Of a stretch of 64,000 bases of DNA, positions 10,754 to 58,273 are shown one piece after another (positions within the stretch are counted from its first letter, which is position 1; every line of letters starts with the position of its first letter). A model generated the notes under the pieces. That model worked only from the letters and a program-made list of their open reading frames with translations. It did not search any database and was not told the DNA's origin. The position numbers and the translations under genes are program-made. Source of the DNA: Candidatus Methylomirabilota bacterium (GTDB lineage Bacteria > Methylomirabilota > Methylomirabilia > Rokubacteriales > CSP1-6); contig DASQAK010000052.1 in NCBI GenBank assembly GCA_035635755.1, forward strand, positions 6,236 through 70,235, written 5' to 3'.

Positions 10754-10757
<4 letters not shown>
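10041..10757 (-). CDS. SAM-dependent methyltransferase
   Basis: 238 aa from 'MTEAEVLARH'. 'VVEVGAGPGF', 'LQPRGRVAMIEPW'. ATG overlaps upstream stop (ATGA). Confidence 0.7.
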
Positions 10758-14010
<3,253 letters not shown>

Positions 14011-28930: not shown

Positions 28931-30225
28931 GGCGACTCGCCGATGGTTACTCGCGTGAGACCCGCCCGTCGGCAGCGCGCGCCGTCCAGCACTCCGGCCG
29001 CGTCCACCACCACGAATGATCGCAGCCGCTCCTTGAGAGCGGACGGGTCCACCGTGGCGAACTCGTCCCAGTCGGTGAGAATGACGAGGGCATCGGCGCC
29101 CTCGGTCGCCTGGAGGGCGCTCGACGCCATCAGGACGTCCGCGGTGGGCGGGAGCGTCACCTGCGGGTCATATGCGGTGACGACGGCGCGGCCGGCCAGA
29201 TCTCGCAGGAGCCTCAGGCTGATGGCGTTCTTGGTCGACCGGCTGTTCTTCTTGTACGCGAGCCCCCACAGGGCGATGCGCGGCCGCATCCCGGCGCGGA
29301 GGACGTGGCGATCGACGGCCCGCGTGAGCCACGCGTAGCGCGCGGCGCTCCGCTCGAGGATGAGAGCCGGAAGCCCTGCGTCTGTGCCATGGCTCGCCGC
29401 AAGCTCGCGCAGTTGGACGAGGTCACGCTCGAGATTGCCGCCCGCCAGCCCCAGTCCCGGACGGATATAGGCGTGGGGACCGATCCGTCGATCGCTCCGG
29501 AGCGCAGGCAGCATGGCCGTCATGCTCGCCCCCGTCACCTCGCAGAGATCCGCCAGGGCATTGGCATAGGTCACGGAGGCGGCGAGGTAGAAGTTGATGG
29601 CCGCCTTGCAGAGCTCCGCGCTCTCGTAGTTCATGCGGATGGCGGGGCAGCCGAATCGGGCCACGAGGGCGTCGAGGGTGGGCTCGGGCGCATGGTCGGT
29701 CTCGGGCCCGCCCAGCCAATCGGGCCCGCCCAGAATGATGCGCTCGGGCCTGAGATAGCGCGCGACGGCCTCACCGATGACGAGCGTCTCGACCCAGTAG
29801 TAGAGGCGCGACCGCAGATCGGGCCGCTTCTCGCGGAGACGCCCGGCGAGCGTCCGCGTATAGCCAACGGGTACCTGGCTCATGAGGGCGACCACCCCAT
29901 CGGCGGGCAGCCATGGCAGGGCCTGGTCGACATGGCGCTCGAGCTCCGACAGGTCGGCCCGGTTCTCGTCGTCGGTGACGGTGTCCAGCGCGACAATGAT
30001 CGTCTCTGCTCCCTCGAGGGCGCCGAAATCACCGCTGAACGTGGGTGGCGTGCGAGCCAGAAGGTCCGTGAGACCGGGTTCATCGACGGGCAGCGTCCCA
30101 CTGGCGAGCGCCGTGGCCCGCGCGGTGTCGCCGACCGCCATCACCTCGAAGCCCATGGACGAAAGACAGGCGCTCGTCACGAGGCCAAGGTGAGAGAGAC
30201 CGACGACACCGATCCGCTCCGTCAC
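28921..30225 (-). CDS. UDP-glucose/GDP-mannose dehydrogenase-family protein lacking the catalytic cysteine
   Basis: N-terminus 'IGVVGLSHLGL...EPGLTDLL' matches the family. The position of the canonical 'GGxCxxKD' motif reads 'GLAGGNLERD' (no Cys, Lys to Arg). GTGA overlap with upstream stop. Confidence 0.7.
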   Translation of the reverse strand: MTERIGVVGLSHLGLVTSACLSSMGFEVMAVGDTARATALASGTLPVDEPGLTDLLARTPPTFSGDFGALEGAETIIVALDTVTDDENRADLSELERHVDQALPWLPADGVVALMSQVPVGYTRTLAGRLREKRPDLRSRLYYWVETLVIGEAVARYLRPERIILGGPDWLGGPETDHAPEPTLDALVARFGCPAIRMNYESAELCKAAINFYLAASVTYANALADLCEVTGASMTAMLPALRSDRRIGPHAYIRPGLGLAGGNLERDLVQLRELAASHGTDAGLPALILERSAARYAWLTRAVDRHVLRAGMRPRIALWGLAYKKNSRSTKNAISLRLLRDLAGRAVVTAYDPQVTLPPTADVLMASSALQATEGADALVILTDWDEFATVDPSALKERLRSFVVVDAAGVLDGARCRRAGLTRVTIGESPWT

Positions 30226-31148
30226 GGCCCGCTCTTCGCCGAGGCCTGAGCGAGGAGGGAGCGGATCGCCTCCGCGATGCGCCAGTCGTTCTCGAGCGAG
30301 CTCTCTCCCGCTCGCGCGCGCCGCTCGAACTCGTCGAGGTCCGCCTCCCAGGTGACATCGCCCGCCGGCTGTTCCTCGCGCCGCTCCTCCGGAACACCGC
30401 TCGGCAGCACCCGCGTGCGACGCAGCAGGGTAACCCCGCCCCACTTGCCCAGGCCATCCAGGTGCAGCGAGCCCGCGCTCCCGAACACCTCCACCCGGAA
30501 CGTGTTCTTCCAGAAGACATTGCCGACCTCGAGGAAGACCCGGCGATCGACGGAGGTGAAGACCCCGTAGTCGAAGGTGCCCGACTCGACCGGCCGCAGG
30601 TCCAGGAGGGCGTAGCGCTCGCGCTCGTGGCCCAGGAGATAGCCGCAGAGGTCGAGGAGGTGGCAGCCGAGGTCCTCCAGGACCCCGCCGCCGGATTCGC
30701 GCCAGGTGCCGAGCCACTCGCGCACGGTGCCATTGCCGTAGAGCATGCGCACGCGGTCGAGCTTGCCCACGGCGCCCGCGTCGAGCAGCTGCTTGAGCCG
30801 CATGATCGAAGGCTCGAAGCGGTGATTGTACGAGGTATACCAGACGGCGCCGCTGCGCGCGCGGGCCGCGAGTGCCTCCGCTTGGTCGCGGCTCGAGAAG
30901 AGGAGCGGCTTTTCCACCAGGACCGGCTTGCCTTCCGCGAGGAAGCGGCCGACATAGTCGACCTTGGTGGGATTCGGGGTGGCCACGATCACCGCGTCGT
31001 ACGCGTCGGGGTCGACCTCGTCCACCGCCCGCACGGTGGCCCCGGGCGCCACTGGATCCACCGTGGCGGCGCAGCGCGCCCCCAGAAGACGCGCGCGGCG
31101 CCTGCCGATGTTGCCGAGGCCGACGACGAGATAGCGGAGAACGCCCAC
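30222..31148 (-). CDS. Gfo/Idh/MocA-family oxidoreductase
   Basis: 308 aa; 'LRYLVVGLGNIGRR', 'EKPLL' motif. Confidence 0.8.
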   Translation of the reverse strand: MGVLRYLVVGLGNIGRRRARLLGARCAATVDPVAPGATVRAVDEVDPDAYDAVIVATPNPTKVDYVGRFLAEGKPVLVEKPLLFSSRDQAEALAARARSGAVWYTSYNHRFEPSIMRLKQLLDAGAVGKLDRVRMLYGNGTVREWLGTWRESGGGVLEDLGCHLLDLCGYLLGHERERYALLDLRPVESGTFDYGVFTSVDRRVFLEVGNVFWKNTFRVEVFGSAGSLHLDGLGKWGGVTLLRRTRVLPSGVPEERREEQPAGDVTWEADLDEFERRARAGESSLENDWRIAEAIRSLLAQASAKSGP

Positions 31149-31155
31149 CGTCGGC

Positions 31156-32691
31156 TCAGGCCCCGGCCGCGGCCCGCTTGAGGGCGTCGAGCTTGTCCTC
31201 GACCTCGGCGATGACGACCGGCACGTTGCCCGGGCGCTCGCAGGCCACGGCGGCGGCGAGACTGCCGAGGATGCTGGCGATGACGATGCTGCCCGACTGC
31301 GCCAGGGCCAGGGTGGCCATGGCCAGCAGCGCGTCGCCGGCGCCGATAGGGTCGACGAGATTGCCGACGAAGCTGTCCACGATGAAGAACTCGCGGGGCA
31401 TCCGGCCCGGGCTGCGATAGGTCAGAATGCCGCGCTCACCAAGCTTCAAGATCAGGTAGCGGCAGCCTGCGCGCTGGAAGAGGGTCTGCGCCATCGGGCG
31501 CACGCCCGAGTCCTGGTCTCCGAGGCCGAAGCGCGCCTCGCGCTCGTTCGGCGTGATGAGATCGAATCCCTGAAAGTCCAGGATATTGCCCCAGCGGTTC
31601 GACACCTGACTGTCGGCCGCGCGGAGCACGCCCGGTCGCACCGCCGCCGCGTATTCCTCGATCGTCGAGCGATGGAAGATCCCGTGCCGGAAGTCGCTGA
31701 AGATGACGACGTCCGCCGGGTTTCCCTGAATGGCGTCGACGATCTCGCGCCGCAGCCGGTCGGACACGATGTGGTTGTCGACCCGGTCGACCTGGAGCAT
31801 CCGATGATGATCGGCGATGAACCGCTCCTTGAGGGTCGTGGGCCGGCTGGCGTCGACGAGGGCCCGCGTCGCCACCCCGGTGGCGGCCAAGTCGTCGACC
31901 ACGAAGGCCCGCAGCTCGTCGTCGCCCAGGACGGTCGTAAACGACACCTGGGCTCCCACGCTGTGGACGTGCTTGGCCACCACGGCGGCGCCGCCCACGA
32001 AGGTGTCGGCGTGCTCGAACCTGAGGCTGAAGCTCGGGGACTTGGCGCTCTGGCCGAGGAGCGAGCAGTACGAGTAGCGGTCCACGATGGTGTCGCCCAC
32101 GACGTGCGCGCGGACGCGGCCGAGATCGTGAAGGGTCGCCCGGAGCTGATCGAAGGTGACGCCCTCCGACTGCAGCAGCGTGATGAGCTTGTCGACGGTG
32201 AGCCGGGGCTCGTGCTGGGTGATGATCGTGCTCGACGAGTAGACGACGTCGCCGGGCGTGAACACCATCTCGCCGCCGTACGCCTCGAGCGCGCCGACCT
32301 CCTCCTGCGTCTTGGGCGGCAGCGGACTCGTCTGATACTCGAAGCCCTTGGCGAAGAAGTCGGGCTGGACGATCCGGATGCTCTCGATCGGAGTCTCGTT
32401 GGGGTCGATGACAACATAGTCCACGAACTCGAGCGCGGCCAGGTTGGCCGCGCGGAGCTCCTGCGGCACGTAAGGGCGGTAGGCGCCCTTGGAGATGTGG
32501 GCATCGGCCGTCACGCTGGCGATGAGGACGTCCGCCTTCTCCTTGGCGTACATGAGATGGCGCAGGTGACCGGGATGGACGATGTCGAAGGTGCCGTGAC
32601 ACATGATGGCCGTGCGCTTCCGAGGACGAGGGCCCAGGAGGGTCGCCAGCTCCTCGCGGGTCTTGATCTTGTGGGCGAACTTTTCGTACAT
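31156..32691 (-). CDS. bifunctional sugar-1-phosphate nucleotidyltransferase / PfkB-family sugar kinase (HldE/RfaE-like with reversed domain order)
   Basis: Start at 'MYEKFAHK' (GGAG RBS). N-terminal cytidylyltransferase domain 'IMCHGTFDIVHPGHLRHL' (HxGH). C-terminal PfkB kinase with 'DPIGAGDALLA'. Confidence 0.75.
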   Translation of the reverse strand: MYEKFAHKIKTREELATLLGPRPRKRTAIMCHGTFDIVHPGHLRHLMYAKEKADVLIASVTADAHISKGAYRPYVPQELRAANLAALEFVDYVVIDPNETPIESIRIVQPDFFAKGFEYQTSPLPPKTQEEVGALEAYGGEMVFTPGDVVYSSSTIITQHEPRLTVDKLITLLQSEGVTFDQLRATLHDLGRVRAHVVGDTIVDRYSYCSLLGQSAKSPSFSLRFEHADTFVGGAAVVAKHVHSVGAQVSFTTVLGDDELRAFVVDDLAATGVATRALVDASRPTTLKERFIADHHRMLQVDRVDNHIVSDRLRREIVDAIQGNPADVVIFSDFRHGIFHRSTIEEYAAAVRPGVLRAADSQVSNRWGNILDFQGFDLITPNEREARFGLGDQDSGVRPMAQTLFQRAGCRYLILKLGERGILTYRSPGRMPREFFIVDSFVGNLVDPIGAGDALLAMATLALAQSGSIVIASILGSLAAAVACERPGNVPVVIAEVEDKLDALKRAAAGA

Positions 32692-32701
32692 GACGCTCCG
32701 G

Positions 32702-33694
32702 CTAGCCCAGGTACTTGAACCAGTCCCGCGTGGCCTGGGCAATGGTGTCCACCGTCCACACGGGCGCCGCGCGCCAGTCGTCGATATGGTCGAGCATGAT
32801 CTTGACGCCCTCCTCGAAGCTCACCGTGGGCTCCCAGCCCGTCGCGCGTCGGATCTTCGAGATGTCGGCATGCGTGCGGTCGGGCTCCCCTGGCCGCTTC
32901 GGAACATGCACCGTGGGCCCGCCCAGGAGCTCTACCAGGCGATTGACGCTCTGGGGTGCGCCCGCGCCCACGTTGAACACCTCGCCGGCCGAGCGCGATT
33001 GCGCCGCGAGGAGATTGGCCCGCGCCACGTCGGTGACGAAGACGAAGTCGCGGGTCTGCGTGCCGTCACCCACTATCGTGAAGGGATGACCATTGAGCTT
33101 CTGAGCAAGAAAAACACCGAACACCGCCCCGTAGGTGCCTGACGTTCGCGAGCGGGGACCATAGGCATTGAAATACCGGAGCGACACGACGGGGAGGCGG
33201 TAGACCTGCCCCCAGTGGAGGGCCATGGTCTCGCCCAGATACTTGCTGAGGGCATACGGATATTCAGTACGGATCGGCGCCGTCTCCGGCGTGGGATGGA
33301 CATCCGAGATGCCATAGCATGACGACGAGGCGGAATAGATGAACCGCTCCACGCCGGCCGTCCTCGCCGCCTCGAGCGCCCCCAGCGTGCCCATGACGTT
33401 GGCGCGCAGGTAGCGCTCGGGGTGTTCGATCGACGGCACGATATCCGCAAGAGCCGCGAAGTGGAAGACCCAGGCCGCCCCCGCGAACTCCGAGGCCATG
33501 CGCGCGCCGTCGCAGACGTCTGCCGCGACCACCTTGAGCTGGGGGGAGCCGCGATGGTGGGCGAGGTTGTCGGGACGGCCCGTGCTGAAATCATCCACCG
33601 CCACCACGTCGTGGCCTTCCGCGAGCAGGAGGTCGACCATGTGGCTCCCGATGAAGCCGCCCCCGCCCGTGACCACGCTCCGGCGACGCGCCAA
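32702..33694 (-). CDS. NAD-dependent epimerase/dehydratase (extended SDR)
   Basis: '[12 protein letters not shown]', 'YALSKYLGE', 'RYFNAYGPR'. Confidence 0.8.
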
Positions 33695-33747
33695 CGCTAG
33701 CTGGCTCGGAGGGCTCGTGGGGGACAGGAAATCACCTGGACAAGCTC

Positions 33748-34746
33748 CTAGCGCAACCCGGCCGCCTGGATGGCCTTGACGTTGTAGTACTCGATGGCGC
33801 CGACGGGATCGGGCACCTTCCCCGCGGCGAAGGCCCGGCAGAGATCGCGGACGGCGTCCTCGATGGTGCGCTTGGGAACAAAGCCGAGCTCTCGCCGGAT
33901 CTTCTCCGAGGAGATGTGATACGAGCGCAGGTCATCGGACGGCGTGGTGACGATCTCCACCTCCTCGCGGCCCGGCACTTCCCGGCTGACCACGTCGCGT
34001 ACGATGGCGGCGATCTCGGCCACGGTGTGATTCTGGTAGCCGGCATTGAAGGTCTTGCCCGCGATGAGGCCATCGGGCACCTCGAGCAGCATGGCGTAGA
34101 GGTCGCACACATCGTCGATGTGGATGTTCGGCCGGCGCTGGCTCCCGCCGAAGACCGTGATCTTCCCGTTCACCAGGGCCGACATGGTCAGGATATTGAC
34201 GGTCAGATCGAGCCGCAGCCGCGGCGAATAGCCGCAGACGGTCGCGGGCCGGATCGTCACCGTCGTGAACCCGGGCGCTTGGTGCTTGAAGAGCAGCGGC
34301 TCGCACAGGCCCTTGTACTTGTTGTAGTCGGTGAGCGGCACCAGCGGGTGCTCTTCGGTGACGTTCTCCGCGTCGCTCACGCCGTACACGCTCGATGTCG
34401 AGGCGTAGATGAAGCGCCGCACTCCGGCCTCCAGGGCCGCCGTCACCATGGGCTCGAAGCACTCGAAGTTGATGGTGCGGCTCAGCCGGGGATCGAGCGC
34501 GAAGCTCGGATCGTTGGAGATGCAGGCGAGATGGATGACCGCCTCGTGCCCTGGAAGCACGCGCCGCAGGAGGGCTTCGTCGCGGATGTCGCCGGTGATC
34601 CGCCGGAGCCGGTCGGAGTCCGCAGGCAGATGATCGCCGAAGAGAAACAGGTCGAGCGCGGTCACGTCGTGCCCCGCCTCGAGAAGGCGCGGCACCAGCA
34701 CCGTGCCCACGTATCCCGCGCCGCCCGTGACGAAGACGCGGCTCAC
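33748..34746 (-). CDS. NAD-dependent epimerase/dehydratase (extended SDR)
   Basis: '[11 protein letters not shown]', 'YNKYKGLCE'. Confidence 0.8.
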
Positions 34747-35471
34747 AGCTGACCGACCGATGTGAGCATGCGACGTCTCGCCACCCGGAGCGCCCAGAAC
34801 GTGGTGATAACGGTCTTGGCCACACTCAAGAAGTTGCGCAGGCTCAGCGCCCGCGACCGCCGAGCGGCGGCCTCATCGATGGGGACACCCACCTCGACCA
34901 CCGACAGTCCCGCATCGATGGCCTTGAGCAGCGTCTCCGCCTGAAATCCAAACCCCCAGGTCGTGACGGGGCGGGTCAGCAAGAACTGACGCGGGTAAAC
35001 CGACAGGCCGTTGAAGTATCGCATCCGGAGGCCGAAGAGGGCGTTCAGGGTCGTGGTGTAGGCCGTCGATATGACACGCCTGAATCCCACCCGCACCTCG
35101 GGGTTCGTGGCGTACGAGGTGACCACATCGGCCTTCCCCATATGGCGCAGGATCTCGCCGATCGAGTCCTCCGGCCATGTGTTGTCTCCGGGAACGTAGA
35201 CAAAGTGAGACTTTCTCGCCTCGCGCACCCCGCGCGCATAGCTGTAACCGAGCCCCATGTTGCGCAGGTTCTCGACGACGCGAACCCGCGGCTGCGTCCT
35301 CGCGAGCCGCGTGGCCACGGCCCCCGTCCCGTCCGTGCTTCCGTCGTTCACGATGATGATCTCGAAGTCCTCGCACACGCCGGCCACGACGCGAATCAGC
35401 TGCCGTACCGTGGCCTCGAGATCCCGCTCCTCGTTCAGGGCCGGCACCAGGACCGAGAGCGAGTGGGCCAT
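34743..35471 (-). CDS. glycosyltransferase family 2 (polyprenyl-phosphate glycosyltransferase-like)
   Basis: 242 aa; 'LSVLVPALNEERDL...EIIIVNDGSTDGT'. Confidence 0.75.
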   Translation of the reverse strand: MAHSLSVLVPALNEERDLEATVRQLIRVVAGVCEDFEIIIVNDGSTDGTGAVATRLARTQPRVRVVENLRNMGLGYSYARGVREARKSHFVYVPGDNTWPEDSIGEILRHMGKADVVTSYATNPEVRVGFRRVISTAYTTTLNALFGLRMRYFNGLSVYPRQFLLTRPVTTWGFGFQAETLLKAIDAGLSVVEVGVPIDEAAARRSRALSLRNFLSVAKTVITTFWALRVARRRMLTSVGQL

Positions 35472-36505
35472 CAGTAGGGCCCCTGGAAAGCGGATACTTC
35501 CGGAGCGAATTCCGGAAGGATCGACACGTCGCGATCGAGGCTACGGAGACACTCCGCGGCAATGGTGTGGCGATCCGGGTAGAAGGCTCTCTCCAGCGGC
35601 ACCGAGACGGGAGCCGGACAGTCCGCGAGCCCTATGCGCCGGACGGGCGACTTGAGATGTCCCAGAGCGCTCTCGGCGCAGATCGCGGCCACCTCCGCCG
35701 ATAGGCCAAAGGCGAGCCAGCTCGTATCGGCGACAACGACGCGGCCCGTCTTTCTCACCGATCCGAGAATCGTCTCCGCATCGAGGGGACGGATGCTGCG
35801 GCAGTCCACGATCTCGAGACTGATGCCCAGTGGAGCGAGCAGATCGGCGGCGCGCATCGCTTCCACGAGCATCAGCGACACTGCGACCACTGTGAGGTCG
35901 CGGCCTTCCCTGACGATGGACGCCGTGCCGAGGGGCGTCGGCTCGGGAGCTTCCGGCACGGGCCCGCGCGTCTCGTAGAGCGCGCGGTGCTCCAGTATGA
36001 CGACGGGCGCCCGCGCCTGGAGAGCGGCCAGGGTCAGGCCTTTGGCGTCCCGGGGTAGAGCGGGCATGACAACGTGGAGCCCGGGGAAATGCCCGAAGAG
36101 CGCCTGGAGGCTCTGGGAATGTGTCGCGCCCTGCCCCCATCCTTTCCCGACGATGGAACGGACGACTATCGGCACGCTCGACGCCCCACCGTACATGTAG
36201 CGCCACTTCGCCGCCAGGTTGATCATCTGGTCCGTCGCGAGAAACATGAAATCATTGCGCGCGTGCACGACGACGGGACGCTTGCCCATGGCCGCGGCCC
36301 CTATCGCGACCCCCGTGAGGGCCTGTTCGGCTATGGGCACGTCGAAGACTCTGGCCCGGCCGAATTTTTCGTAGGCGGGGCGGGTCGTTCCAAAGATCCC
36401 CTTGTGATCATCGACGCCGATTCCCATGATGAACACATCCGGATCCTGCGCCATTCCCTGAACGAGGGCCTCGGCGATTGCCTCCGCGTATGTGCGCGTG
36501 CGCAT
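35471..36505 (-). CDS. ThDP-dependent 2-oxoacid dehydrogenase E1 component, beta subunit (transketolase-like)
   Basis: 344 aa; 'FIMGIGV', 'RVFDVPIAEQALTGVAIGAA', C-terminal TK_C-like domain. Confidence 0.85.
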   Translation of the reverse strand: MRTRTYAEAIAEALVQGMAQDPDVFIMGIGVDDHKGIFGTTRPAYEKFGRARVFDVPIAEQALTGVAIGAAAMGKRPVVVHARNDFMFLATDQMINLAAKWRYMYGGASSVPIVVRSIVGKGWGQGATHSQSLQALFGHFPGLHVVMPALPRDAKGLTLAALQARAPVVILEHRALYETRGPVPEAPEPTPLGTASIVREGRDLTVVAVSLMLVEAMRAADLLAPLGISLEIVDCRSIRPLDAETILGSVRKTGRVVVADTSWLAFGLSAEVAAICAESALGHLKSPVRRIGLADCPAPVSVPLERAFYPDRHTIAAECLRSLDRDVSILPEFAPEVSAFQGPY

Positions 36506-36516
36506 GATCGCTTCCG

Positions 36517-37557
36517 CTAGTATACGTTCTTGAGGAGATCGCGCGGATCGGGCCAGGGCGCCTGCTTGGCCTCCGCCACCGCCTTGGCGATCTCCTCGGC
36601 GATCTGCGACTCGAACTGTTGGAAGGTCGCGCTGCTCGCGAGCCCGCGTGCTTTCAGCGCCTTGGCGCTCCGCTTGACGGGATCCCTGCGCTTCCAGGAT
36701 TCGATCTCACGCGCGGTCCGATAGCCGCGCTCAGAGTCATCCAGGGGGCCGACGTGCTCGAGCCAACGATACGTCGCGCACTCGAGGAAGACCGGCCCCC
36801 GGCCCCCCCGGCACTGCGTCACCGCCCGCCGGGCGCTGCGGTACACCGCGTACACATCATTGCCGTCGAGCTCCTCCGCGGACATCTCGTACATCTGGGC
36901 GCGTCGGTAGATCTCGGTGCCTCGAGGGAGCCGGACAGACAGCGGCGAGTGCGTGGCATACAGGTTGTTCTCGCACACGAACACCACGGGCAGGCGCTTG
37001 ACAGCCGCCCAGTTCAAGCTCTCGTGAAAGACGCCTTCGTCAACCGCGCCATCGCCGAAGAACGTCACGGCGACCCGCGAGGATCCGTCCATCTGGAACG
37101 CGAGCGCGGATCCCACGGCGACGGGGATTGTCTGAGCGAGGATGGCGGAGGCCGCCACCATTCCCACGGACATGTCGCTCAAGTGAACGGAGCCGCCTCG
37201 GCCGCGAGCCGCCCCACTCTCCCGCCCATAGAGCTCGGCCACGAGCGCCGCCAGATTGCCCCCCTTGGCCAGATAGTGCGCATGGCAGCGGTGTCCGCTG
37301 AAGACGACGTCGTCGGACCGGAGGGCGGCACACATTCCGACCGCCACCGCCTCTTGTCCGACGGAGAAGTGCGTCGGAGTACGCATTTCCTGCTCTTTGT
37401 AGAGCTCCGCCAGCTTCTCCTCCACGCGCCGCGCGCGCAGGAGCTCGAAGTGCAGGCGCAGGCTCGACTCAGCAGACAGCCCTCGAAGAGACGACCCGTC
37501 GACCCGGCGTGCAGCCCGGGCGGAGCGCCTGGCCCTCGGCCGCTTCTTCCCCGTCAT
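36517..37557 (-). CDS. ThDP-dependent 2-oxoacid dehydrogenase E1 component, alpha subunit
   Basis: 'RRVEEKLAELYKEQEMRTPTHFSVGQEAVAVG', 'GDGAVDEGVFHESLNWAA' (ThDP GDG motif). 30-aa basic N-terminal extension may not be translated. Confidence 0.8.
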   Translation of the reverse strand: MTGKKRPRARRSARAARRVDGSSLRGLSAESSLRLHFELLRARRVEEKLAELYKEQEMRTPTHFSVGQEAVAVGMCAALRSDDVVFSGHRCHAHYLAKGGNLAALVAELYGRESGAARGRGGSVHLSDMSVGMVAASAILAQTIPVAVGSALAFQMDGSSRVAVTFFGDGAVDEGVFHESLNWAAVKRLPVVFVCENNLYATHSPLSVRLPRGTEIYRRAQMYEMSAEELDGNDVYAVYRSARRAVTQCRGGRGPVFLECATYRWLEHVGPLDDSERGYRTAREIESWKRRDPVKRSAKALKARGLASSATFQQFESQIAEEIAKAVAEAKQAPWPDPRDLLKNVY

Positions 37558-37663
37558 TGAGCTCTCAAACTCTCAAGGACCTGTACCGGATAGGTACCCC
37601 GCATGCGATACACCGTGGCTCCACGATAGCTGTCGAACGATACCACACACGTGTGGCCCATAC
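37558..37663 (-). promoter_or_regulatory. 106-nt lower-GC intergenic gap with a near-perfect palindrome CCACACACGTGTGG (37633-37646) and a CTCTCAA direct repeat; possible internal promoter/operator
   Basis: Read directly. One of only three >50-nt gaps in the 50-kb minus-strand array. Confidence 0.25.
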
Positions 37664-38584
37664 CTATTGTCCGGAGCCCGTGGCCGCCGGCTTACGAGCG
37701 ACGATGCCGATATTGCCCAGGGGCAAGCTCAGGGGAAGCGTGTCGGCCCCCAGGGTCCGGAGGACACCGTGTCCGAGGCGGCGGAGAATCGGAGGCAGCA
37801 GCGGCGCCTTGTCGAGAAGAAATCCGGTCGAGTAGCGATTGTACGTCGTTCGCACCACCGCGACGTCGAACCCCGCCCGCTCGAAGAGAAGCCTCAGGGT
37901 CCGCTTGGAGAGGAAATAGTGGTGATACACGTTGTAGGGGGGGAAACGCTCTCCCAGGAGCCGCTCCAGGAGCGATTCGACGTTGTGGACGACCGCCAGG
38001 ACCGCCCCGCCTCGCCGAAGGTGACCGCGCACCCGAACCAGGAAATCGTTCACGTCGACCAGGTGATCGACCACATGAATGAGGGTGATCAGATCGAAGT
38101 GCTCCGGGGGATACACGGTAGCCTCGTAGAACGCGCGGGAGATCGAGCTTCCGGGAACAGCCGCCGCCTGCGCAGCCGCTACCGGGTTGGGCTCGATCCC
38201 GAAGACCTCTCGGAAGCCATCTCGCCGGGCCACGTCGAGCAGCATGCCCGTGTCACAACCGATATCGAGCATGCGATCGCGACGGGCCAGGTGCGGGCGG
38301 ATGAGCTCGTAGTAGAGCTCGAACGTCCGTTTGACATTTCCCTCCTCTCCCGAGCGCACGTTGGTGTGGGCAGCCTGGGCGTACAGGTCGCGCACCCCAG
38401 CCTCGTCGAAGATCGGGCTCGAGTACCGAAGGCGGCAGCCGGAGCATTCCCTGATCCGATAATGTACGTGCTCGGGGTCGTGCATCGGCCCGGCCGCCGT
38501 CGGCATCGCATCGGGCGTCAGCGTCTGCCGATAGATGGTGCGCCCTTCGTCCTTGCGGCAGATGGGGCACCCGATGTTCCTCAT
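37664..38584 (-). CDS. class I SAM-dependent methyltransferase with N-terminal Zn-ribbon (CPxC...CxxC)
   Basis: C-terminal 306 aa of ORF 37664..39724 from 'MRNIGCPICRK...CSGCRLRYSSP'. 'MLDIGCDTGML', 'LRRGGAVLAVVHN'. Confidence 0.7.
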   Translation of the reverse strand: MRNIGCPICRKDEGRTIYRQTLTPDAMPTAAGPMHDPEHVHYRIRECSGCRLRYSSPIFDEAGVRDLYAQAAHTNVRSGEEGNVKRTFELYYELIRPHLARRDRMLDIGCDTGMLLDVARRDGFREVFGIEPNPVAAAQAAAVPGSSISRAFYEATVYPPEHFDLITLIHVVDHLVDVNDFLVRVRGHLRRGGAVLAVVHNVESLLERLLGERFPPYNVYHHYFLSKRTLRLLFERAGFDVAVVRTTYNRYSTGFLLDKAPLLPPILRRLGHGVLRTLGADTLPLSLPLGNIGIVARKPAATGSGQ

Positions 38585-38592
38585 GGGGTGGC

Positions 38593-40188
38593 TCACATCG
38601 ACCGCCGGCGGAACACGCCGTATTCCATCCCCAGCGCGCCCTGAACCACGCTGACCTGCTCGAACCGCTCGCTCAGCAGCTTCCGGATGAGTCGGGCCAC
38701 CTCTGGTCGGTACCCGTCCAGGGCATCGAGGGAAGCGGGCGACACGATGGCGTACTGGACGTCCCGACCAAGCCAGCGCTCCACGTCCGCCGCCGACCAG
38801 GCACCGCTCCGGTGCAGAATCGCCTCGTCGGCGCCAGGGGGCGCCACGGTGCCGCCGGGCGACATCAGTTGCTGGACATAGGCCTGGAGCCCGGCAAGGT
38901 AGATCGGCATCGGCTGCGCGAAGAGGAATACCTTCGTTCCCGCAGGCACCAGTGCTCGAAGATCCGAGGCCGCCCGGTCGGTCATCTCGATCGGGTCCTG
39001 TTTGAACGGTGTCGGGATCGGCCGGGGCATGAGCGGGTGGCGGACGGCCACCACGGAGAGCACGAGACCGGCAGCGAGAGAAGCCGCGACGATTCCACGC
39101 GTGAGCCGATCCATATCGGCGCGGGCGAGGCAAGTCGCGCTTACGACCCCCAGCACCACGGCGAAGAGGGGGGCGAACGAGGGAAAGTATGCCGGCACGA
39201 TCTTGAAGTTCATGCGGAGCATGACGAAGTGCCAGGCCAGGATCCAGAGCCAGAGGCCGCCTATCACGCCCAGTCCGCGGCGCCACGGCATCCATGCCGG
39301 TCCTCTTCCGCGAAGCGCCAGCAGGCCACTTGCAACGAGAAGGCCCCCCGCCGTCAGCGTCCAGGACTCGTACCGTCGCGCGAAGATCACGAACGACCAG
39401 ATCTGCTCCTGCCGCCCCGCCTCCCGCACGGGGGAGAATTCGAGAATGGAGCGGTAGCCCAGAGGCTCCACGAAGCCGCGCAGCACGGGCACGTGCGCCA
39501 GGAGCTTCAGATGCGTGGTATCGGCGGCGAGAAACAGCGCGGGAGGAACCACGGCGATGAGCGCGACGGCGAGACGCTCGGCGCGGCCTCGGGCCACGCT
39601 GAAGGCCCACACGAGAAAGAACGGCAGGGACGGGAAAAGATTCGTTCGAGTAAAGAAGAGGAGCGACGCGATGGTCATCCCGATCGCTCCTCGCCACCGC
39701 ATCTCCTCTTTCAGCAACACCCACACGGCCGTCATCAGGACGAGGGCCGTCATGGAATGGTACGTGGCCGTCGCGAAGTAGCCGACCAGGGTGCCTTGCG
39801 TCGCGAGGAGCAGTCCTGCGAGCACCCCCGCCGTGTCGCCGCCAACTCTGCGCGCCACGGCCACCGTGGCCAGCAGCGCGACGAGTCCTATCCCCAGCGA
39901 GACGAGGCGCGCCGCCCAGAGACTCCGCCCGAAGATCTCCTGTGACGCTCCGAGCACGTAGAAGGGCAACGGCATACGCTGCCCCGTCATCTCGTCCTGG
40001 AACAGAGCGATCTGCCCGGTGAGGGCCATCTGGCCGAGAGCGAGAAAGGACGACTCGTCATCCCACGTGATGAGGCTGCGAGAGTAGAAGACGCCGATCG
40101 CCAGATACACGACAACCATCACGGCCACGGCCCCCCGGAACGTCATCGAGGACATCCCGGGCGGTGGCGGAGTCGCGGCCTCGGTCAT
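38593..40188 (-). CDS. GT-C-fold membrane glycosyltransferase (PMT/ArnT-like, GT39/GT83-type)
   Basis: 531 aa, >10 predicted TM helices. N-terminal loop motif 'LFQDEMTGQRMPLPFY' is shared with the paralogue at 56644..58269. Confidence 0.6.
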   Translation of the reverse strand: MTEAATPPPPGMSSMTFRGAVAVMVVVYLAIGVFYSRSLITWDDESSFLALGQMALTGQIALFQDEMTGQRMPLPFYVLGASQEIFGRSLWAARLVSLGIGLVALLATVAVARRVGGDTAGVLAGLLLATQGTLVGYFATATYHSMTALVLMTAVWVLLKEEMRWRGAIGMTIASLLFFTRTNLFPSLPFFLVWAFSVARGRAERLAVALIAVVPPALFLAADTTHLKLLAHVPVLRGFVEPLGYRSILEFSPVREAGRQEQIWSFVIFARRYESWTLTAGGLLVASGLLALRGRGPAWMPWRRGLGVIGGLWLWILAWHFVMLRMNFKIVPAYFPSFAPLFAVVLGVVSATCLARADMDRLTRGIVAASLAAGLVLSVVAVRHPLMPRPIPTPFKQDPIEMTDRAASDLRALVPAGTKVFLFAQPMPIYLAGLQAYVQQLMSPGGTVAPPGADEAILHRSGAWSAADVERWLGRDVQYAIVSPASLDALDGYRPEVARLIRKLLSERFEQVSVVQGALGMEYGVFRRRSM

Positions 40189-41351
40189 TCGGTGAAACGC
40201 TTCTGCACCAGCCGCGCGTCGATGGGAACCGAGCGAAGCACGTCGACGATGCGCGGCGCGGCGTGGCCGTCACCGTAGGGATTGGCGGCCGCGCGGGCCC
40301 GGGCGCGGAAGGCCGGCGCCTGGGCCGCCTCGATGCCCCGCAAGATGTCCTCGCGCGAGGGCTCGACGTCGATGACGTTGGCCCCCCGGAGCCGTCCGCG
40401 CTGGCGCGAGCCCACGTTGACCACGGGCAGCCCGAAGGAAGGCGCCTCGATGAGACCGCTCGAGGAATTGCCGATCATGAGATCGGCGTGGCGCAGCAGC
40501 GAGAGGTAGGGCCGCTCGCCCAGGCTCTTGGCGAGCCGGCAGCGCCGGGAATGGCGCCCCGCGAACTCCTCGATCCGCTCGATGATGAGCCGCCCCGACG
40601 TGTCGGCATTGGGATACGTGATGACGATGAAGCCGTCCGTCTTCTCGATCGCGGCCAGGAGCTCGTCGATGTGGGCGGCGGTGTCCCGGTACTCGAGGGT
40701 GACGGGATGAAAGGTGACGAGGAGCCAGGGCCCCGCCTCGGGCAACCTGAGCTCGCGGGCCAGCGCCGCGCGGGACAGCGGCTCCGTGGTGGCGAGGCGG
40801 TCGAGGCCGGGTGCGCCGACGGAGTGGATGCGCCACGGCTCCTCCCCCATGGCGGCGATGCGCCTCGCATGGGGCTCCGCCGAGGCGAAATGCAGATGCG
40901 CGAGCTTGGTGATCGCATGGCGGATCTGATTGTCCATCGCCCCTTCGGAGAGCTCGCCGCCGTGGATGTGCGCCACGGGGAGGGCAAAGGGAAGCGCGGC
41001 CACCGCCGCCGCGAGCATCTCGAAGCGGTCGCCCAGGACCACGACCACATCCGGGCGTATGCGCGCGAACACCTCTCCGAAGCCCGCCACTCCTCGCCCC
41101 GTGGCGGCCGCCACCGCCTCCGGCGTGTCGTCGCCCCCGAGCATCTCGACGCGGGCGGAGATGGGAAAGCCGTCCGCCTCGATGTCGCGTACCGTCAGGC
41201 CAAACTCGCTTGCCAAATGCATGCCCGCCACCAGGAGAAGCAGCTCGAGGTCGGGCGCGCGCCGCAGCGCCTCGAGCACCGGCCGCAGGTGGCCGTAGTC
41301 CGAGCGGCTGACCGTGACCACGCCGATGCGCCTCGCGGCCCCCTCCGTCAT
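40185..41351 (-). CDS. UDP-N-acetylglucosamine 2-epimerase family (NeuC-like, hydrolysing type)
   Basis: 388 aa; 'VAHIHGGELSEGAMDNQIRHAITKLAHLHF'. ATGA overlaps on both sides. Confidence 0.8.
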   Translation of the reverse strand: MTEGAARRIGVVTVSRSDYGHLRPVLEALRRAPDLELLLLVAGMHLASEFGLTVRDIEADGFPISARVEMLGGDDTPEAVAAATGRGVAGFGEVFARIRPDVVVVLGDRFEMLAAAVAALPFALPVAHIHGGELSEGAMDNQIRHAITKLAHLHFASAEPHARRIAAMGEEPWRIHSVGAPGLDRLATTEPLSRAALARELRLPEAGPWLLVTFHPVTLEYRDTAAHIDELLAAIEKTDGFIVITYPNADTSGRLIIERIEEFAGRHSRRCRLAKSLGERPYLSLLRHADLMIGNSSSGLIEAPSFGLPVVNVGSRQRGRLRGANVIDVEPSREDILRGIEAAQAPAFRARARAAANPYGDGHAAPRIVDVLRSVPIDARLVQKRFTE

Positions 41352-42397
41352 GGCTCCGCCAGCGCCTCCCAGCCGATCACTTCGTCGGCGGCGATATCGC
41401 GAGCGAGCGGGCGCCCGATCGCCTTGTCCAGATCGGCGGGGGAGATGCCCGTGCCGGGCCGCTTGATCAGGACGTCTTCCGCCCCGAGCCGCGCGCCCGC
41501 CCTGAGTGCCCGCGCCGCCACCAGGCTCTTCCGCGCCACCCGGCGGGTGTCGAGCTCCGACGGCATGGGGCGCTTGGTCCCGTCACCGAGCGCGGACTCC
41601 ACGGCCCGGATGGCCCGGACCATGGCCGCGAACTCGACGGGATCGAGGGAGGCGCGATGATCGGGACCGGGCAGGGTCTTGTCGAGCGTCAGGTGCTTCT
41701 CGATGATGGCGGCGCCGCGCGCGGCTGCCGCCACCGCGATCTCGATGCCCAGCGTGTGATCGGAGAAGCCCACGGGACAGCCGCATCGCGCGGCGAGGGC
41801 ATCCATGGCGCGCAGGTTGACCTCGGCGGCGGGAGCGGGATACGCGGAGAGACAGTGGAGCACGGCCAGGGGCGGATTGCCGGCGGCCCGGATGGCCGCC
41901 ACCGCTTGCTCGACTTCGTCCAGGCTCGACATGCCGGTGGACAGGATGATGGGACGGCCCTTGGATGCGAGGTGGCGCAGCAGCGGGAGATTGGTGATCT
42001 CCCCCGACGGCACCTTGAAGAGGGCGACCCCGAGCCTGTCCAGTACATCTGCGCTCTCCTCGTCGAAGGGCGCCGAGAAGAACGTGAGCCCGCGCTTCGC
42101 GGCCCGGTCCTTGAGCTCCGCCAGCACCGCCGTGGCGAGCTCGAGTCGCGCGAGCATGTCGCGCTGGCTCTCGTCCGCCCCCGTGGTCTCGACCTGGTAT
42201 CCCGCCTTGGGCGCGCCGCGGGTCAGCAAGGCGTCGACGCGAAACGTCTGGAACTTGACGGCGTCCGCCCCGCTCTCGGCCGCGGCGTCCACCAGGCGGC
42301 GGGCGAGCGCCGGATCGCCATTGTGATTCACGCCGGCCTCGGCCACGATGTAGATACGCCCGCCCGCGCCGAAGCAGGGCAGGCCCGGCGCGGTCAC
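41348..42397 (-). CDS. N-acylneuraminate-9-phosphate / nonulosonic acid synthase family (NeuB/LegI/PseI-like) with C-terminal SAF domain
   Basis: 'IYIVAEAGVNHNGDPALARRLVDAAAESGADAVKFQTF'; C-terminal SAF/AFP-like domain. GTGA overlap with upstream stop. Confidence 0.85.
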   Translation of the reverse strand: MTAPGLPCFGAGGRIYIVAEAGVNHNGDPALARRLVDAAAESGADAVKFQTFRVDALLTRGAPKAGYQVETTGADESQRDMLARLELATAVLAELKDRAAKRGLTFFSAPFDEESADVLDRLGVALFKVPSGEITNLPLLRHLASKGRPIILSTGMSSLDEVEQAVAAIRAAGNPPLAVLHCLSAYPAPAAEVNLRAMDALAARCGCPVGFSDHTLGIEIAVAAAARGAAIIEKHLTLDKTLPGPDHRASLDPVEFAAMVRAIRAVESALGDGTKRPMPSELDTRRVARKSLVAARALRAGARLGAEDVLIKRPGTGISPADLDKAIGRPLARDIAADEVIGWEALAEP

Positions 42398-44340
42398 GAT
42401 CCGCTCCGCGCCGCGCTGATCTCCTCGGCCAATGCCAGCACCCGCTCCCCCAGGCGGCCGTCGACGGGATGAACGTAGCGCGCGGAGAAGGCGCGCCCCC
42501 GCTCGATCATGACCGCCCGCTCCGCGGGATTCCAGAGCACGACGCGGAGCGTGTCCGCGAGGGCCGCGGCCTTGCCCAGGTCCACCCGCCGGACCGCGCC
42601 CGCGCTGACATAGGGCGGCATGTACTCGCCCTCGAAGTCCTTGCCGGCCGTCTGCACGGCCACCACCGGGCAGCCCAGGGCCATGGCCTCGAGGCCGGCC
42701 ATGGACGTGACCATGACGGCGGCGTCCGCGGCCCCGAAGAGGCGATGGATGTCGTAGTCCTTGGTCAGGAGGGCCTCCGGCCATCCCCACTCGCCCACCT
42801 GCTCGCGCAGACGCTCGAGATCCTCGTTCGGATGGACCTTGACGATGAAGTCCACGTCGCCCAGCTGACGCGCAGCCGCCACCATGGTCCGGTAGAAGCC
42901 TTCTCTCTCCTGCGCCGAGAAGAGCAGCGAGACGTACTTGGACACGAAGACCACGAGGGGGCGGCCGGGGGCGAGGCTGAAGTCGTGGCGGACCTCCTCG
43001 CGCAGCCGCCCCGTGGGCACCAATCGCGCGGCGTTGGAGCGGGGGTCGCCGACCACCGACACCCGTCCCGCCTCGATGCCGAGCTCCCTGACCAGGCTCT
43101 CCCGGAGATGCTCGCCGATGACGACGAGGCGGTCGCCGATATCGAAGCGGCTGGTCAGATCGCGAGGAAGGACGAGAGTTCCCGAGAAGAGCAACGAGGG
43201 AATGCCATTCGCGCGGGCGACGAAGGCCATGGCCCGCTCGCCGAGGCGCCGGTCACTCGTGACGACGAGGGCGTCCGGACGTGTGGCCCTGACGGCACGG
43301 TACGCGGCTTCCTGGCACAGGAGGGCAGCCAGGAGGCTCGCCTCGGAGCCGGCCAGGAATGGCCGGAGGACAGGCCAGAGCGAGACGCCTCGCCACGACA
43401 CTCGCTCCGCGAGCTCCGGATCGCGCTCGGCACGTCGGAGCGCGCGGCGGAACAGCGGCCGGAACCGTCGGACGAGCCGCGCCGCCGTGGCCTGGGGAAG
43501 ATAGTCCATGAGATAAGCCGTAGGCACACCCGCTGCGCTGAGGTCGCTGACACGGGCCGAGAGCTCCGGGTCCTCGTTCGACTGCGCGACGAGACGGGGC
43601 GACGCGCCGGCCGAGCGCACGGCCTCGATCAGAGGGTCCACGAGCAGATGATGGCGGCTCCGGCACGTCACGAAGAGGATGCGCCGGCCCTCGGCGCGCT
43701 GAGAGACGGGGGCATGCCGCTCCTGACGGAGCAGCTGCTGGAGATTGATCCGATCCTCTCGCGGAAAGAGCGCCGCGTAGGCCCGCGCCGCGAGCTGCGG
43801 CAGGGGCGAGCGCGAGACGCCGCGCACCCCCAGGCCGCGGGCCCGCGCCACGAGGCGGGCCACCTGCTCCGTCATCGAGGCGCCGCTCAGCAGCCGCAGC
43901 TGATCGGGCTTCACCTCGTCGAGCACCCGGTTGATGATACCGAGCCGCTCCACCACCTCGAGCCGGACCCGAAGTCTCTTGCCCACCGTGAGCAGATCAG
44001 GCAGCCAGACGCCGCGGTACGAGAGATCGAGCTCGTCCGACGTCGCCTGCCACCAGCCGGTGACGAGGCGTTGCGTCAGCGATTCGAGCTCTCGCGAGTC
44101 GACGGCGTAGGCTTCCTCGTCGTAGTAGTGCACGGCGACCGTGGGGGGAATGGCCGAGGCGTCCACGAGCTGGCGGGCGCCCAGCACGGTCACCTCATGG
44201 TCCTCGATCAGGCGCTTGACCGCGCGGGTCACGGCCCGCCGGTACCAGTGGGCATAGGCGAGAAAGGATCGACGCACCATGGGCCGGCGAAACTCGCCGA
44301 TGCTCCGGGTCGCCTCGGTGACGAGGAGGAGCCGGATCAC
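42394..44340 (-). CDS. large two-domain GT-B-like transferase with HP motif (TagF/KpsC/sialyltransferase-like); candidate ulosonic-acid or glycerophosphate transferase
   Basis: C-terminal ~649 aa of ORF 42394..45036. 'FIVKVHPNED' HP motif typical of CDP-/CMP-dependent GT-B transferases. N-terminal 230 aa of the ORF rejected as artefact. Confidence 0.45.
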   Translation of the reverse strand: MIRLLLVTEATRSIGEFRRPMVRRSFLAYAHWYRRAVTRAVKRLIEDHEVTVLGARQLVDASAIPPTVAVHYYDEEAYAVDSRELESLTQRLVTGWWQATSDELDLSYRGVWLPDLLTVGKRLRVRLEVVERLGIINRVLDEVKPDQLRLLSGASMTEQVARLVARARGLGVRGVSRSPLPQLAARAYAALFPREDRINLQQLLRQERHAPVSQRAEGRRILFVTCRSRHHLLVDPLIEAVRSAGASPRLVAQSNEDPELSARVSDLSAAGVPTAYLMDYLPQATAARLVRRFRPLFRRALRRAERDPELAERVSWRGVSLWPVLRPFLAGSEASLLAALLCQEAAYRAVRATRPDALVVTSDRRLGERAMAFVARANGIPSLLFSGTLVLPRDLTSRFDIGDRLVVIGEHLRESLVRELGIEAGRVSVVGDPRSNAARLVPTGRLREEVRHDFSLAPGRPLVVFVSKYVSLLFSAQEREGFYRTMVAAARQLGDVDFIVKVHPNEDLERLREQVGEWGWPEALLTKDYDIHRLFGAADAAVMVTSMAGLEAMALGCPVVAVQTAGKDFEGEYMPPYVSAGAVRRVDLGKAAALADTLRVVLWNPAERAVMIERGRAFSARYVHPVDGRLGERVLALAEEISAARSGS

Positions 44341-44960: not shown

Positions 44961-44966
44961 GGCTCG

Positions 44967-45692: not shown

Positions 45693-45695
45693 CCG

Positions 45696-58269: not shown

Positions 58270-58273
58270 GCCC

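Follow-up and report, generated by a model that had tools for sequence, protein, structure and literature searches.

We analysed a 64,000-nucleotide stretch of DNA from a Candidatus Methylomirabilota bacterium (contig DASQAK010000052.1), referred to as the window throughout, with a focus on two adjacent genes at 35471–37557 for the alpha and beta subunits of a thiamine diphosphate (ThDP)-dependent enzyme of the E1 type. The E1 alpha-like subunit (346 aa, 36517–37557, minus strand) matches PF00676 (E1_dh) over practically the entire profile in the Pfam scan (E=3.2e-69, profile positions 5–299 of 300) and carries the GDG(X)nNN motif for ThDP and Mg (FFGDGAVDEG...CENN), a TYRWLEHVGP loop and a HRCHAHYLAKGG motif. 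The E1 beta-like subunit (344 aa, 35471–36505, minus strand) consists of the domains Transket_pyr (PF02779, 1.7e-29) and Transketolase_C (PF02780, 4.4e-32), followed by a C-terminal extension ending in FQGPY. Its ThDP-activating Glu is found in VPIAEQ, which aligns to TPLAES in 1W85 chain B, and the catalytic His residues of both subunits (alpha TYRWLEH, beta ATHSQS) align with those in solved pyruvate dehydrogenase (PDH) E1s, the top solved relatives being human PDH E1 alpha (170 bits) and G. stearothermophilus PDH E1 beta (217 bits). Judged by sequence, both subunits belong to the 2-oxoacid dehydrogenase E1 alpha/beta superfamily with ThDP and catalytic motifs intact, so that the pair reported in a preliminary description of this locus is real, as are the neighbours named there, a family 2 glycosyltransferase (GT2, 34743–35471) and an S-adenosylmethionine (SAM)-dependent methyltransferase (37664–38584). 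E1_dh and the transketolase pyrimidine-binding and C-terminal domains are the only domains in the pair, and the TPP_enzyme_N/M/C architecture of acetolactate-synthase-like enzymes is absent from it. The two E1 genes are separated by 11 nt, the stop codon of E1 beta shares 1 nt with the ATG of the GT2, and E1 alpha, E1 beta, the GT2 and a short-chain dehydrogenase/reductase (SDR) at 33748–34746 are joined by overlapping or near-overlapping stop and start codons. The E1 pair is thus translationally coupled to the GT2.

A scan of about 63 open reading frames (ORFs) covering the whole 64 kb returned no lipoyl, E2 catalytic or E3 domain, which extends to the entire window what the preliminary description had stated for the surroundings of the pair. 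Both subunits fall short of the curated PDH cut-offs, E1 alpha with 303.5 bits against 393.85 for TIGR03182 and E1 beta with 296.7 bits against 321 for PRK09212. As E2-linked controls we used the plasmid pdhA loci of Cupriavidus, Sinorhizobium, Rhodococcus and Streptomyces fungicidicus (L086, L169, L170, L172), in which pdhA is 41–46% identical to the window E1 alpha and E2 directly follows E1 beta, in the gene order acsA-pdhA-E1beta-E2-ACP (ACP, acyl carrier protein). This five-gene operon, repeated on unrelated plasmids, is an observation in its own right, and an ACP straight after E2 is unusual in a PDH or acetoin operon. Beside the catalytic His, the four controls display TYRFRAHS without the GP insertion, while E2-less sequences display TYRW[LR]EH[VC]GP with a two-residue insertion; the Y-R-x-x-(G/A)-H-S loop of E2-dependent E1 alpha subunits is accordingly missing in the window, where TYRWLEHVGP takes its place. 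A second change in the alpha subunit turns YREHGHAL of the E2-linked proteins into HRxHxxYLAKGG, and E2-less beta subunits feature about 20 extra C-terminal residues ending in F-x-G-P-Y/F, a tail that the E2-linked ones do not have. It should be noted that the alpha signature served among the search patterns for genome loci, which biases that set. It nevertheless recurs in loci retrieved independently, by an HldE-like anchor or by plasmid tblastn (L085, L088, L090, L092, L110, L125, L136, L141, L143, L147), and both the alpha loop and the beta tail are seen where the E1 sequence had no part in retrieving the locus. The loop of L087 is divergent (GHAGC).

Neighbour joining, with the E2-linked E1s as root, places all E2-less sequences, including the window, in one large assemblage. 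Nested among the clades of cassette-borne pairs is a Streptomyces clade that includes pairs beside dTDP-glucose 4,6-dehydratase and 3,5-epimerase genes, with 53–61% identity to the window for those pairs. The phylogeny proposed as a check in the preliminary description therefore sets the window apart from E2-linked E1s and places Streptomyces dTDP-deoxysugar pairs in the same clade, the AviB group being represented by context-defined proxies. The window pair lacks the features of a PDH-complex E1 in curated score, in E2 linkage within the window and in the active-site loop. An ordinary catabolic E1 of a pyruvate, acetoin or branched-chain 2-oxoacid dehydrogenase, with E2 and E3 encoded elsewhere, would fit the nearest curated models and solved structures, which are PDH E1 subunits. 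We nonetheless regard it as highly improbable, given the two missed cut-offs, the altered active-site loop and added beta tail relative to E2-linked E1s, the translational coupling to GT2 and SDR, and a linkage to sugar genes that is conserved across phyla. The pair is best explained as an alpha2beta2-type ThDP enzyme with E1 fold and without an E2/E3 complex, putatively serving a dedicated nucleotide-sugar pathway in a tailoring step.

The genes of this putative pathway form a cassette that continues downstream of E1 beta as a single tightly packed operon, within a region (21–52 kb) where, according to codon-position G+C, nearly all genes lie on the minus strand; overall G+C of the window is about 69%. 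A promoter and terminator scan around the operon gave no promoter-like sites and terminator-like matches at background level. All genes described in this paragraph are on the minus strand. The small GT2 (242 aa, 34743–35471, PF00535 3.9e-22) is Dpm1/GtrB/ArnC-like, with weak NCBIfam matches among which is dolichyl-phosphate hexose transferase, and is a probable polyprenyl-phosphate sugar transferase. It is followed by two extended SDRs, one resembling Cj1427 (33748–34746, with 6vo6/6vo8 as top solved relative and the motif ASTSSVYG) and one GalE/UXS-like epimerase or oxidoreductase (32702–33694, PF01370 1.3e-59, SASSSCYG...YALSK) with UDP-glucose 4-epimerases as top PDB matches. An HldE-like bifunctional enzyme (31156–32691) displays reversed domain order, with a cytidylyltransferase-like nucleotidyltransferase at the N-terminus (PF01467, residues 48–174) and a PfkB kinase at the C-terminus (PF00294, 214–505), instead of the kinase-then-adenylyltransferase order of HldE. 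It reaches 159 bits against the HldE equivalog cut-off of 521, and the family is strongly conserved across phyla (mean column identity 69% for six sequences from different loci). A Gfo/Idh/MocA (GFO) oxidoreductase (30222–31148, PF22725 and PF01408) precedes a UDP-glucose/GDP-mannose-dehydrogenase-like (UGDH-like) protein without the catalytic Cys (28921–30225, PF03720, PF03721, PF00984, GGNLERD); in related loci the GFO gene is always paired with a UGDH-like gene, and PDB searches with both proteins yielded generic relatives only. A classical FabG-like SDR (28064–28930, PF00106 4.4e-41), also found in the window-type cassettes L002, L004, L089 and L090, is a candidate ketoreductase for the new side chain. 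The operon further encodes a GmhA-like SIS sugar-phosphate isomerase (27450–28060, PF13580; gmhA 90.5 bits, cut-off 209), a GmhB-like HAD-IIIA phosphatase (26920–27455; NF006506 110.8 bits, cut-off 178; TIGR01656 115.8 bits) and an FSA/TalC-type transaldolase (26249–26925, PF00923 1.3e-40; TIGR00875 147.7 bits, cut-off 246). Since the cassette proteins with curated ADP-heptose models all score far below the equivalog cut-offs, the pathway is a divergent one outside every curated family. Upstream of E1 alpha lie the methyltransferase (37664–38584, PF13489 1.6e-20, start MRNIGCP), kept in L002, L003, L005 and L089, and an ArnT-like membrane glycosyltransferase of the GT-C type (PMT_2; 38593–40188, PF13231 5.4e-06), the probable user of the lipid-linked sugar, whose association with methyltransferase and E1 is kept in L002, L005, L089 and L090. 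G+C falls to 0.658–0.666 over window positions 32000–40000 (E1, SDR, methyltransferase and GT-C), compared to about 0.70 in flanking 2-kb bins, which is compatible with a later acquisition of the E1-GT2 module.

Relatives of E1 alpha number in the thousands, the closest named genomes being Candidatus Rokubacteria (78% identity) and metagenome-assembled genomes (MAGs) of Methylomirabilia. From 83 loci fetched via E1 alpha, against which the window proteins were run by tblastn, it became visible that the cassette occurs with an E1 pair in Rokubacteria, Bacillota, Chloroflexota, Planctomycetota, a Nitrosocosmicus archaeon, Azospirillum and Polaromonas, and further in Kordiimonas, Legionellales, Finniella, Sulfidibacter and Lindowbacteria. 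For counting, we required at least 8 kb on both sides of E1. Of the 37 non-actinobacterial loci retained, 28 contain at least one cassette gene (HldE-like 25, Cj1427-like SDR 22, GT2 20), compared to none of the 17 actinobacterial loci. De novo clustering of ORFs additionally revealed recurrent members that are not in the window, namely an SDR of about 297 aa, two methyltransferases, a NUDIX protein, a GtrA-like protein and a flippase-like membrane protein. In a MAG of the ammonia-oxidising archaeon Candidatus Nitrosocosmicus (L022), E1 alpha, E1 beta, the GT2, both SDRs and the HldE-like protein are present at 62–66% identity, implying either transfer of the cassette between domains or mis-binning of the contig. 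Small membrane-like proteins of about 160–180 aa with a soluble C-terminal part (25697–26236 on the minus strand in the window; clusters c32, c49, c50 and c51 in L006, L013, L016, L040 and L056) are located at the cassette end or, in proteobacterial loci, right after E1 beta; the window ORF, the only one checked, gave no match in Pfam. A B12-binding radical SAM enzyme and a MarR-type regulator (46676–48328 and 49572–50240, minus strand) accompany the window-type cassette, with homologues at 80–81% and 65–67% identity in L004 and L090, and radical C-methylation of one sugar is possible.

The reverse test, a metagenome scan anchored on the HldE-like protein, showed a constant core cassette. Among 17 loci flanked by 5 kb or more on each side, 10 contained E1 alpha and beta; requiring 7 kb or more left 12 loci, 9 of them with E1. 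The seven well-flanked loci without E1 rule out that E1 is an obligate member of the cassette core and render it dispensable for the core sugar. The GT2 co-varies with E1, being found in 7 of the 10 loci with E1 and in 2 of the 7 without. In L090, the HldE-like protein is 77% identical to the window, E1 alpha only 51%. Altogether, eight orthologous cassettes (L090, L092, L110, L125, L136, L141, L143, L147) carry E1 pairs of other sub-clades at 37–54% identity, with motifs that include YYRSHGWYLAKGG together with GWGGSMHL or GKAGSQDI; in the type represented by L125, L136, L141 and L147 the canonical GGS(V/M)H motif is missing, as is the beta tail in the three checked (L125, L141, L147). This suggests that the E1 module has been replaced repeatedly within orthologous cassettes. 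Because window-like cassettes carry E1 from other sub-clades, we consider E1 a frequent, exchangeable and optional tailoring module, not a core enzyme.

As for the carbonyl to which a C2 unit could be attached, neither of the adjacent extended SDRs has the Asp/Glu pair of 4,6-dehydratases (SASSSCYG and ASTSSVYG, respectively), which rules out a 4,6-dehydratase as source of the keto acceptor in the style of antibiotic pathways. The keto-sugar acceptor of the preliminary description is modified accordingly: the likelier substrate is an NDP-heptose or NDP-octose (NDP, nucleoside diphosphate) from a dedicated cassette and not a 4-keto-6-deoxyhexose, as the acid/base residues of dehydratases are missing from both SDRs. 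Across loci, E1 has its closest linkage with the SDR at 33748–34746 (median gap 788 nt; 730 nt from E1 beta in the window), which aligns to 6VO6/6VO8 with 133 bits (next 92) and 33% identity over 316 aa. We take 6VO6 to be Cj1427 from C. jejuni; the depositor's name fits the Cj1427 genome annotation. The SDR is therefore a candidate NDP-heptose C4-dehydrogenase that could supply the keto acceptor, as Cj1427 oxidises GDP-D-glycero-D-manno-heptose at C4 and the 4-keto sugar is released (PMC10680097). The Cj1427-like cluster is also found beside distant E1 pairs (43–50% identity) in L085, L087 and L088. These loci, from Azospirillum and Solidesulfovibrio plasmids, represent a second recurring E1 context, in which E1 alpha and E1 beta are accompanied by a DegT aminotransferase, a NUDIX hydrolase nearby, the Cj1427-like SDR, a radical SAM enzyme (L085, L087), a kinase (L087, L088) and a GT-C (L087), and which may provide an amino derivative of a similar C2-modified sugar.

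A second potential carbonyl source is the UGDH-like protein, in which GGNLERD replaces GGxCxxKD, with Cys exchanged for Asn, in all 26 cassette proteins (window and 25 orthologues), and the canonical paralogue at 22779–24071 of the window retains GGACLSKD. With the catalytic Cys gone, formation of a uronic acid via the standard thioester mechanism is impossible. The cassette protein looks like a conserved, catalytically re-purposed subfamily, and may stop at the aldehyde or partner the GFO protein, by class-level analogy to what is reported for LmbL and LmbZ. This opens the alternative of a linear chain extension, in which the UGDH-like enzyme stops at the terminal aldehyde of the NDP-heptose and E1 adds the pyruvate-derived C2 unit there in the manner of 1-deoxy-D-xylulose 5-phosphate (DXP) synthase. 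Besides the closed route to the acid, the proteobacterial cassette order (GFO, UGDH-like, SDR, in some cases methyltransferases, E1 alpha, E1 beta) speaks for it, as do the DegT aminotransferases right after E1 beta in L085, L087 and L088, consistent with a new ketone. Taking into account, however, that L085, L049, L069, L074 and L005 have E1, HldE-like protein and SDRs with no UGDH-like or GFO gene detected, and that these two genes remain in 5 of the 7 E1-less cassettes, we rate the chain extension as unlikely, though as deserving more attention than the other alternatives discussed here. The same rating applies to its product, a C9 sugar with an omega-deoxy methyl-ketone terminus that would later be reduced or transaminated.

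The missing Cys also bears on the use of a sugar 2-oxoacid (nonulosonic, octulosonic or 6-keto-hepturonic), which E1 would decarboxylate, shortening it or using it as a long-chain acyl-anion donor, a role put forward for YerE-type enzymes in sugars like caryophyllose. NeuB and a CMP-sugar synthetase are encoded in the window, NeuB is found near E1 in L001, L004 and L060, and the acceptance of functionalised C4–C8 2-oxoacids as donors is on record for YerE, a family unrelated to E1 (PMC9306805). Against this, the three NeuB-containing loci are the only ones among the first 83, ruling out a link of E1 to the nonulosonic-acid genes of the window, and the cassette UGDH-like proteins lack the Cys needed for the uronic acid. 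The variant in which UGDH and GFO make a sugar 2-oxoacid for decarboxylation by E1 is weakened by the loss of this Cys in all orthologues, and we consider decarboxylation of a sugar 2-oxoacid very unlikely as a whole.

E1 could alternatively act earlier, at the sugar-phosphate stage, where a C2 transfer similar to that of transketolase or DXP synthase (DXS) would build the heptulose or octulose phosphate precursor together with the transaldolase. The transaldolase gene is immediately upstream of E1 alpha in L009, L015, L034, L037 and L119, and transketolase and DXS have folds related to that of E1, though these matches are weak and partial: the pair obtains 34 and 85 bits with transketolase models (cut-off 488) and 22 and 60 bits with dxs models (cut-off 466), that is, 22–85 bits where 466–488 would be needed. 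Moreover, the transaldolase is still present in 6 of the 7 E1-less cassettes, E1 co-varies with the late-acting GT2, relatives occur in dTDP-deoxysugar clusters without sugar-phosphate genes, and a 1-deoxy-ketose product would presumably not be isomerised by the SIS enzyme. A sugar-phosphate role thus appears quite unlikely to us.

We therefore tentatively favour, at somewhat less than an even chance, that the pair is an E2-independent carboligase which attaches an acetyl unit from pyruvate to an NDP-keto-heptose or -octose. The framework of gene identities, operon structure, absence of E2 and E3 from the window, cassette conservation and family signatures was observed directly. Every chemical step placed upon it, as well as pyruvate as donor, the acceptor position and the lipid carrier, derives from family assignments. 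Transaldolase, GmhA-like isomerase, HldE-like kinase/nucleotidyltransferase and GmhB-like phosphatase would provide an NDP-heptose, or an NDP-octose should the transaldolase form octulose phosphate like LmbR. The Cj1427-like SDR would oxidise the NDP-sugar to a free NDP-4-keto sugar, with the GFO/UGDH-like pair as a potential alternative source of the carbonyl. E1 alpha/beta would then convert pyruvate into the hydroxyethylidene-ThDP carbanion, which attacks the 4-keto carbonyl to yield a C-acetyl (later hydroxyethyl) branched C9–C10 sugar, to be completed by the classical SDR and the methyltransferase. The co-translated GT2 would load the sugar onto polyprenyl phosphate, and the PMT_2 GT-C would move it to the envelope glycan outside the membrane. 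The attachment of a C2 unit to a keto-sugar, as put forward in the preliminary description, retains the support of a sugar-nucleotide operon with a candidate keto-forming SDR as tightest neighbour, but its chemistry is hypothetical even for the antibiotic enzymes.

Several points weigh against this proposal. Catalysis by members of the E1 clade, antibiotic ones included, is so far only proposed. About 40% of the well-flanked HldE-anchored cassettes (7 of 17) do without E1, three of them (L099, L144, L163) with full flanks. The co-variation of E1 with the GT2 exceeds that with every sugar-nucleotide gene, and E1 may act at the lipid-linked stage. ThDP carboligation favours aldehyde over ketone acceptors, and an aldehyde might come from the Cys-less UGDH-like protein. 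The likeness to Cj1427 amounts to only 33% identity, and the mapping of 6VO6 to Cj1427 was made through the depositor's name. Finally, a 56.6%-identical homologue on the Streptomyces griseofuscus plasmid pSGRIFU1 precedes a condensation-domain protein and ACPs, not sugar genes. This pair (L084, 14974–24062) features both E2-less signatures and has type II polyketide synthase (PKS) genes close by, suggesting that in this case the subfamily supplies a pathway on carrier proteins. Given this PKS and non-ribosomal peptide synthetase context, the acceptor is not fixed by clade membership. It also introduces the alternative that the C2 acyl unit is handed to a thiol carrier or another non-sugar acceptor, resulting in acyl decoration and not in a C–C bond, as the order on pSGRIFU1 (E1 alpha/beta, a 1100-aa condensation-domain protein, ACPs and a phosphopantetheinyl transferase) would allow. 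For the window we give this very little credence, since ACP, phosphopantetheinyl transferase, condensation and E2-like domains were not found there, and none were evident in the inspected recurrent ORF clusters of cassette loci. The remaining probability is assigned to other, unspecified chemistry. Returning to the carboligase, we finally put forward a broader proposition, held with less conviction and considered possible rather than probable: an E2-independent E1 subfamily, recognisable by its EH(V/C)GP loop and by the F-x-G-P-Y tail of its beta subunit, has repeatedly been recruited, with swapping of sub-clades, into an undescribed multi-phylum heptose/octose cassette reaching archaea, where it would forge a C–C bond on a keto-heptose, giving a C9–C10 branched or extended sugar exported on polyprenyl phosphate for periplasmic glycosylation.

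The surroundings of the cassette constitute a very large glycan island with a Bac_transf initiating transferase, a Wzx-like flippase, GT4s, three PMT_2 GT-Cs, more than 10 methyltransferases and a nonulosonic-acid gene set. Besides the one at 38593–40188, the PMT_2-type GT-Cs are located at 56644–58374 (both minus strand) and 60178–62352 (plus strand), the latter fused to an LmeA-like phospholipid-binding domain, and one of the more than 10 SAM methyltransferases is fused to a GT2 (10754–12430). The three GT-Cs and the many methyltransferases suggest a glycan that is extensively methylated and whose assembly proceeds through a lipid carrier. The nonulosonic-acid set (40185–46748, 48213–49226, 24075–25124 and 20637–21760, minus strand) comprises a NeuC-like 2-epimerase, NeuB with SAF domain, a PglD-like acetyltransferase, a CMP-sugar synthetase, a GFO oxidoreductase, a DegT aminotransferase and an NTP-transferase with CBS domains. 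Alongside the set are an MptE-like (Maf-type) protein and a weakly glycosyltransferase-like protein of about 650 aa (42394–44340). We take the NTP-transferase to be PtmE-like, and the set presumably follows a GDP-GlcNAc-based route of the legionaminic-acid type, as in the C. jejuni pathway.

PDH-E1-like pairs have been invoked for twenty years to explain C2 branches on antibiotic sugars, and none has been reconstituted. A literature search for E1 with heptose, or for E1 in O-antigen clusters, returned nothing relevant, and a description of the cassette was not found. What is new here is the setting in a conserved multi-phylum heptose/octose cassette with a lipid-carrier exit via GT2 and GT-C, together with a candidate 4-keto-heptose acceptor, two signatures of E2-less E1s and a Cys-less UGDH-like partner. 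The E2-less type is far commoner outside antibiotic clusters, as a recurrent module of heptose/octose cassettes in many phyla, and its signatures would correct many annotations as 'pyruvate dehydrogenase E1'. While branching by an E2-less E1 would be unsurprising in principle, a long-unvalidated enzyme class becomes testable in culturable bacteria: the carriers Azospirillum, Skermanella, Polaromonas and Sulfidibacter are tractable systems with a defined candidate substrate, the product of the Cj1427-like SDR. Individual carriers are Azospirillum rugosum (L020, in which the flanks covered hold no cassette gene), A. cavernae (L030), Azospirillum sp. BE72 (L071), Skermanella aerolata and Sulfidibacter corallicola (L078). 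The cassette is also a pointer to unknown higher-carbon branched sugars in the envelopes of environmental bacteria and, if the reading of an E2-independent subfamily is true, a whole class of unknown envelope sugars would exist in soil and freshwater bacteria.

Among known systems, the heterotetrameric E1s of PDH, acetoin and branched-chain dehydrogenases share fold and catalytic residues with the window pair. They differ by the active-site loop, where G-H-S becomes E-H-V-G-P with a two-residue insertion in the window and Y-R-E-H-G becomes H-R-C-H-A, by the window beta subunit being about 20 residues longer at the C-terminus, by the lack of E2 and E3 in the window and by scores below the curated cut-offs. 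YerE, ErwE and MyGE, which branch CDP-4-keto-3,6-dideoxyglucose, share the proposed chemistry, a ThDP-dependent acyl-anion addition to a nucleotide keto-sugar of a surface glycan, and the YerE family is the only one for which ThDP-dependent sugar branching has been demonstrated (PMC9306805). They are, however, single-chain enzymes of the acetolactate-synthase-type ThDP fold, unrelated to the E1 pair. The capsular GDP-heptose modification pathway of C. jejuni (GmhA, kinase, GmhB, nucleotidyltransferase, Cj1427, epimerases, C4-reductases) resembles the cassette in the formation of an NDP-heptose and its subsequent C4 oxidation to a released 4-keto sugar, and an additional SDR in the E1-less cassettes is a possible C4-reductase. 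In contrast to this pathway, the window cassette adds transaldolase, GFO, Cys-less UGDH-like protein and E1, and the domain order of the HldE-like enzyme is reversed. With the lincosamide octose pathway (LmbR, N, P, K, O, L, M, Z, S) the likeness is at the level of enzyme classes only (PMC12945683, PMC4351081), the common classes being transaldolase, SIS isomerase, kinase, phosphatase, nucleotidyltransferase, NDP-sugar-dehydrogenase-like protein, epimerase and NAD(P) oxidoreductase, and E1 alpha/beta takes the position of the aminotransferase LmbS.

By analogy, the window pair would work most like the branching pairs of the AviB type. For the C-acetyl branches of eurekanate and paulomycose, the enzymes put forward are PDH-like heterodimers (PMC4753412, PMC10338323), and branching by EvdU5/EvdS3 was still termed 'hypothesized' in 2023 (PMC10338323). 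AviB1/AviB2, Pau11/Pau12 and EvdU5/EvdS3 have in common with the window an E1 pair lacking E2 and E3 among nucleotide-sugar genes, beside an enzyme that forms a keto-sugar. For these pairs and AlmDI/AlmDII, the genetically characterised members, the likeness in sequence was drawn through context-defined Streptomyces proxies, the activity of the antibiotic pairs themselves being only proposed; these Streptomyces dTDP-deoxysugar pairs share TYRWREHVGP and the F-x-GPY tail and belong to the same clade as the window. The window differs from the antibiotic systems in being a glycan island for the cell envelope, from an uncultured organism resembling Rokubacteria, and not an antibiotic cluster, in obtaining its precursor from a heptose/octose cassette and not from a dTDP-glucose 4,6-dehydratase or UDP-GlcA decarboxylase, and in a product that probably takes the GT2/GT-C lipid-carrier route.

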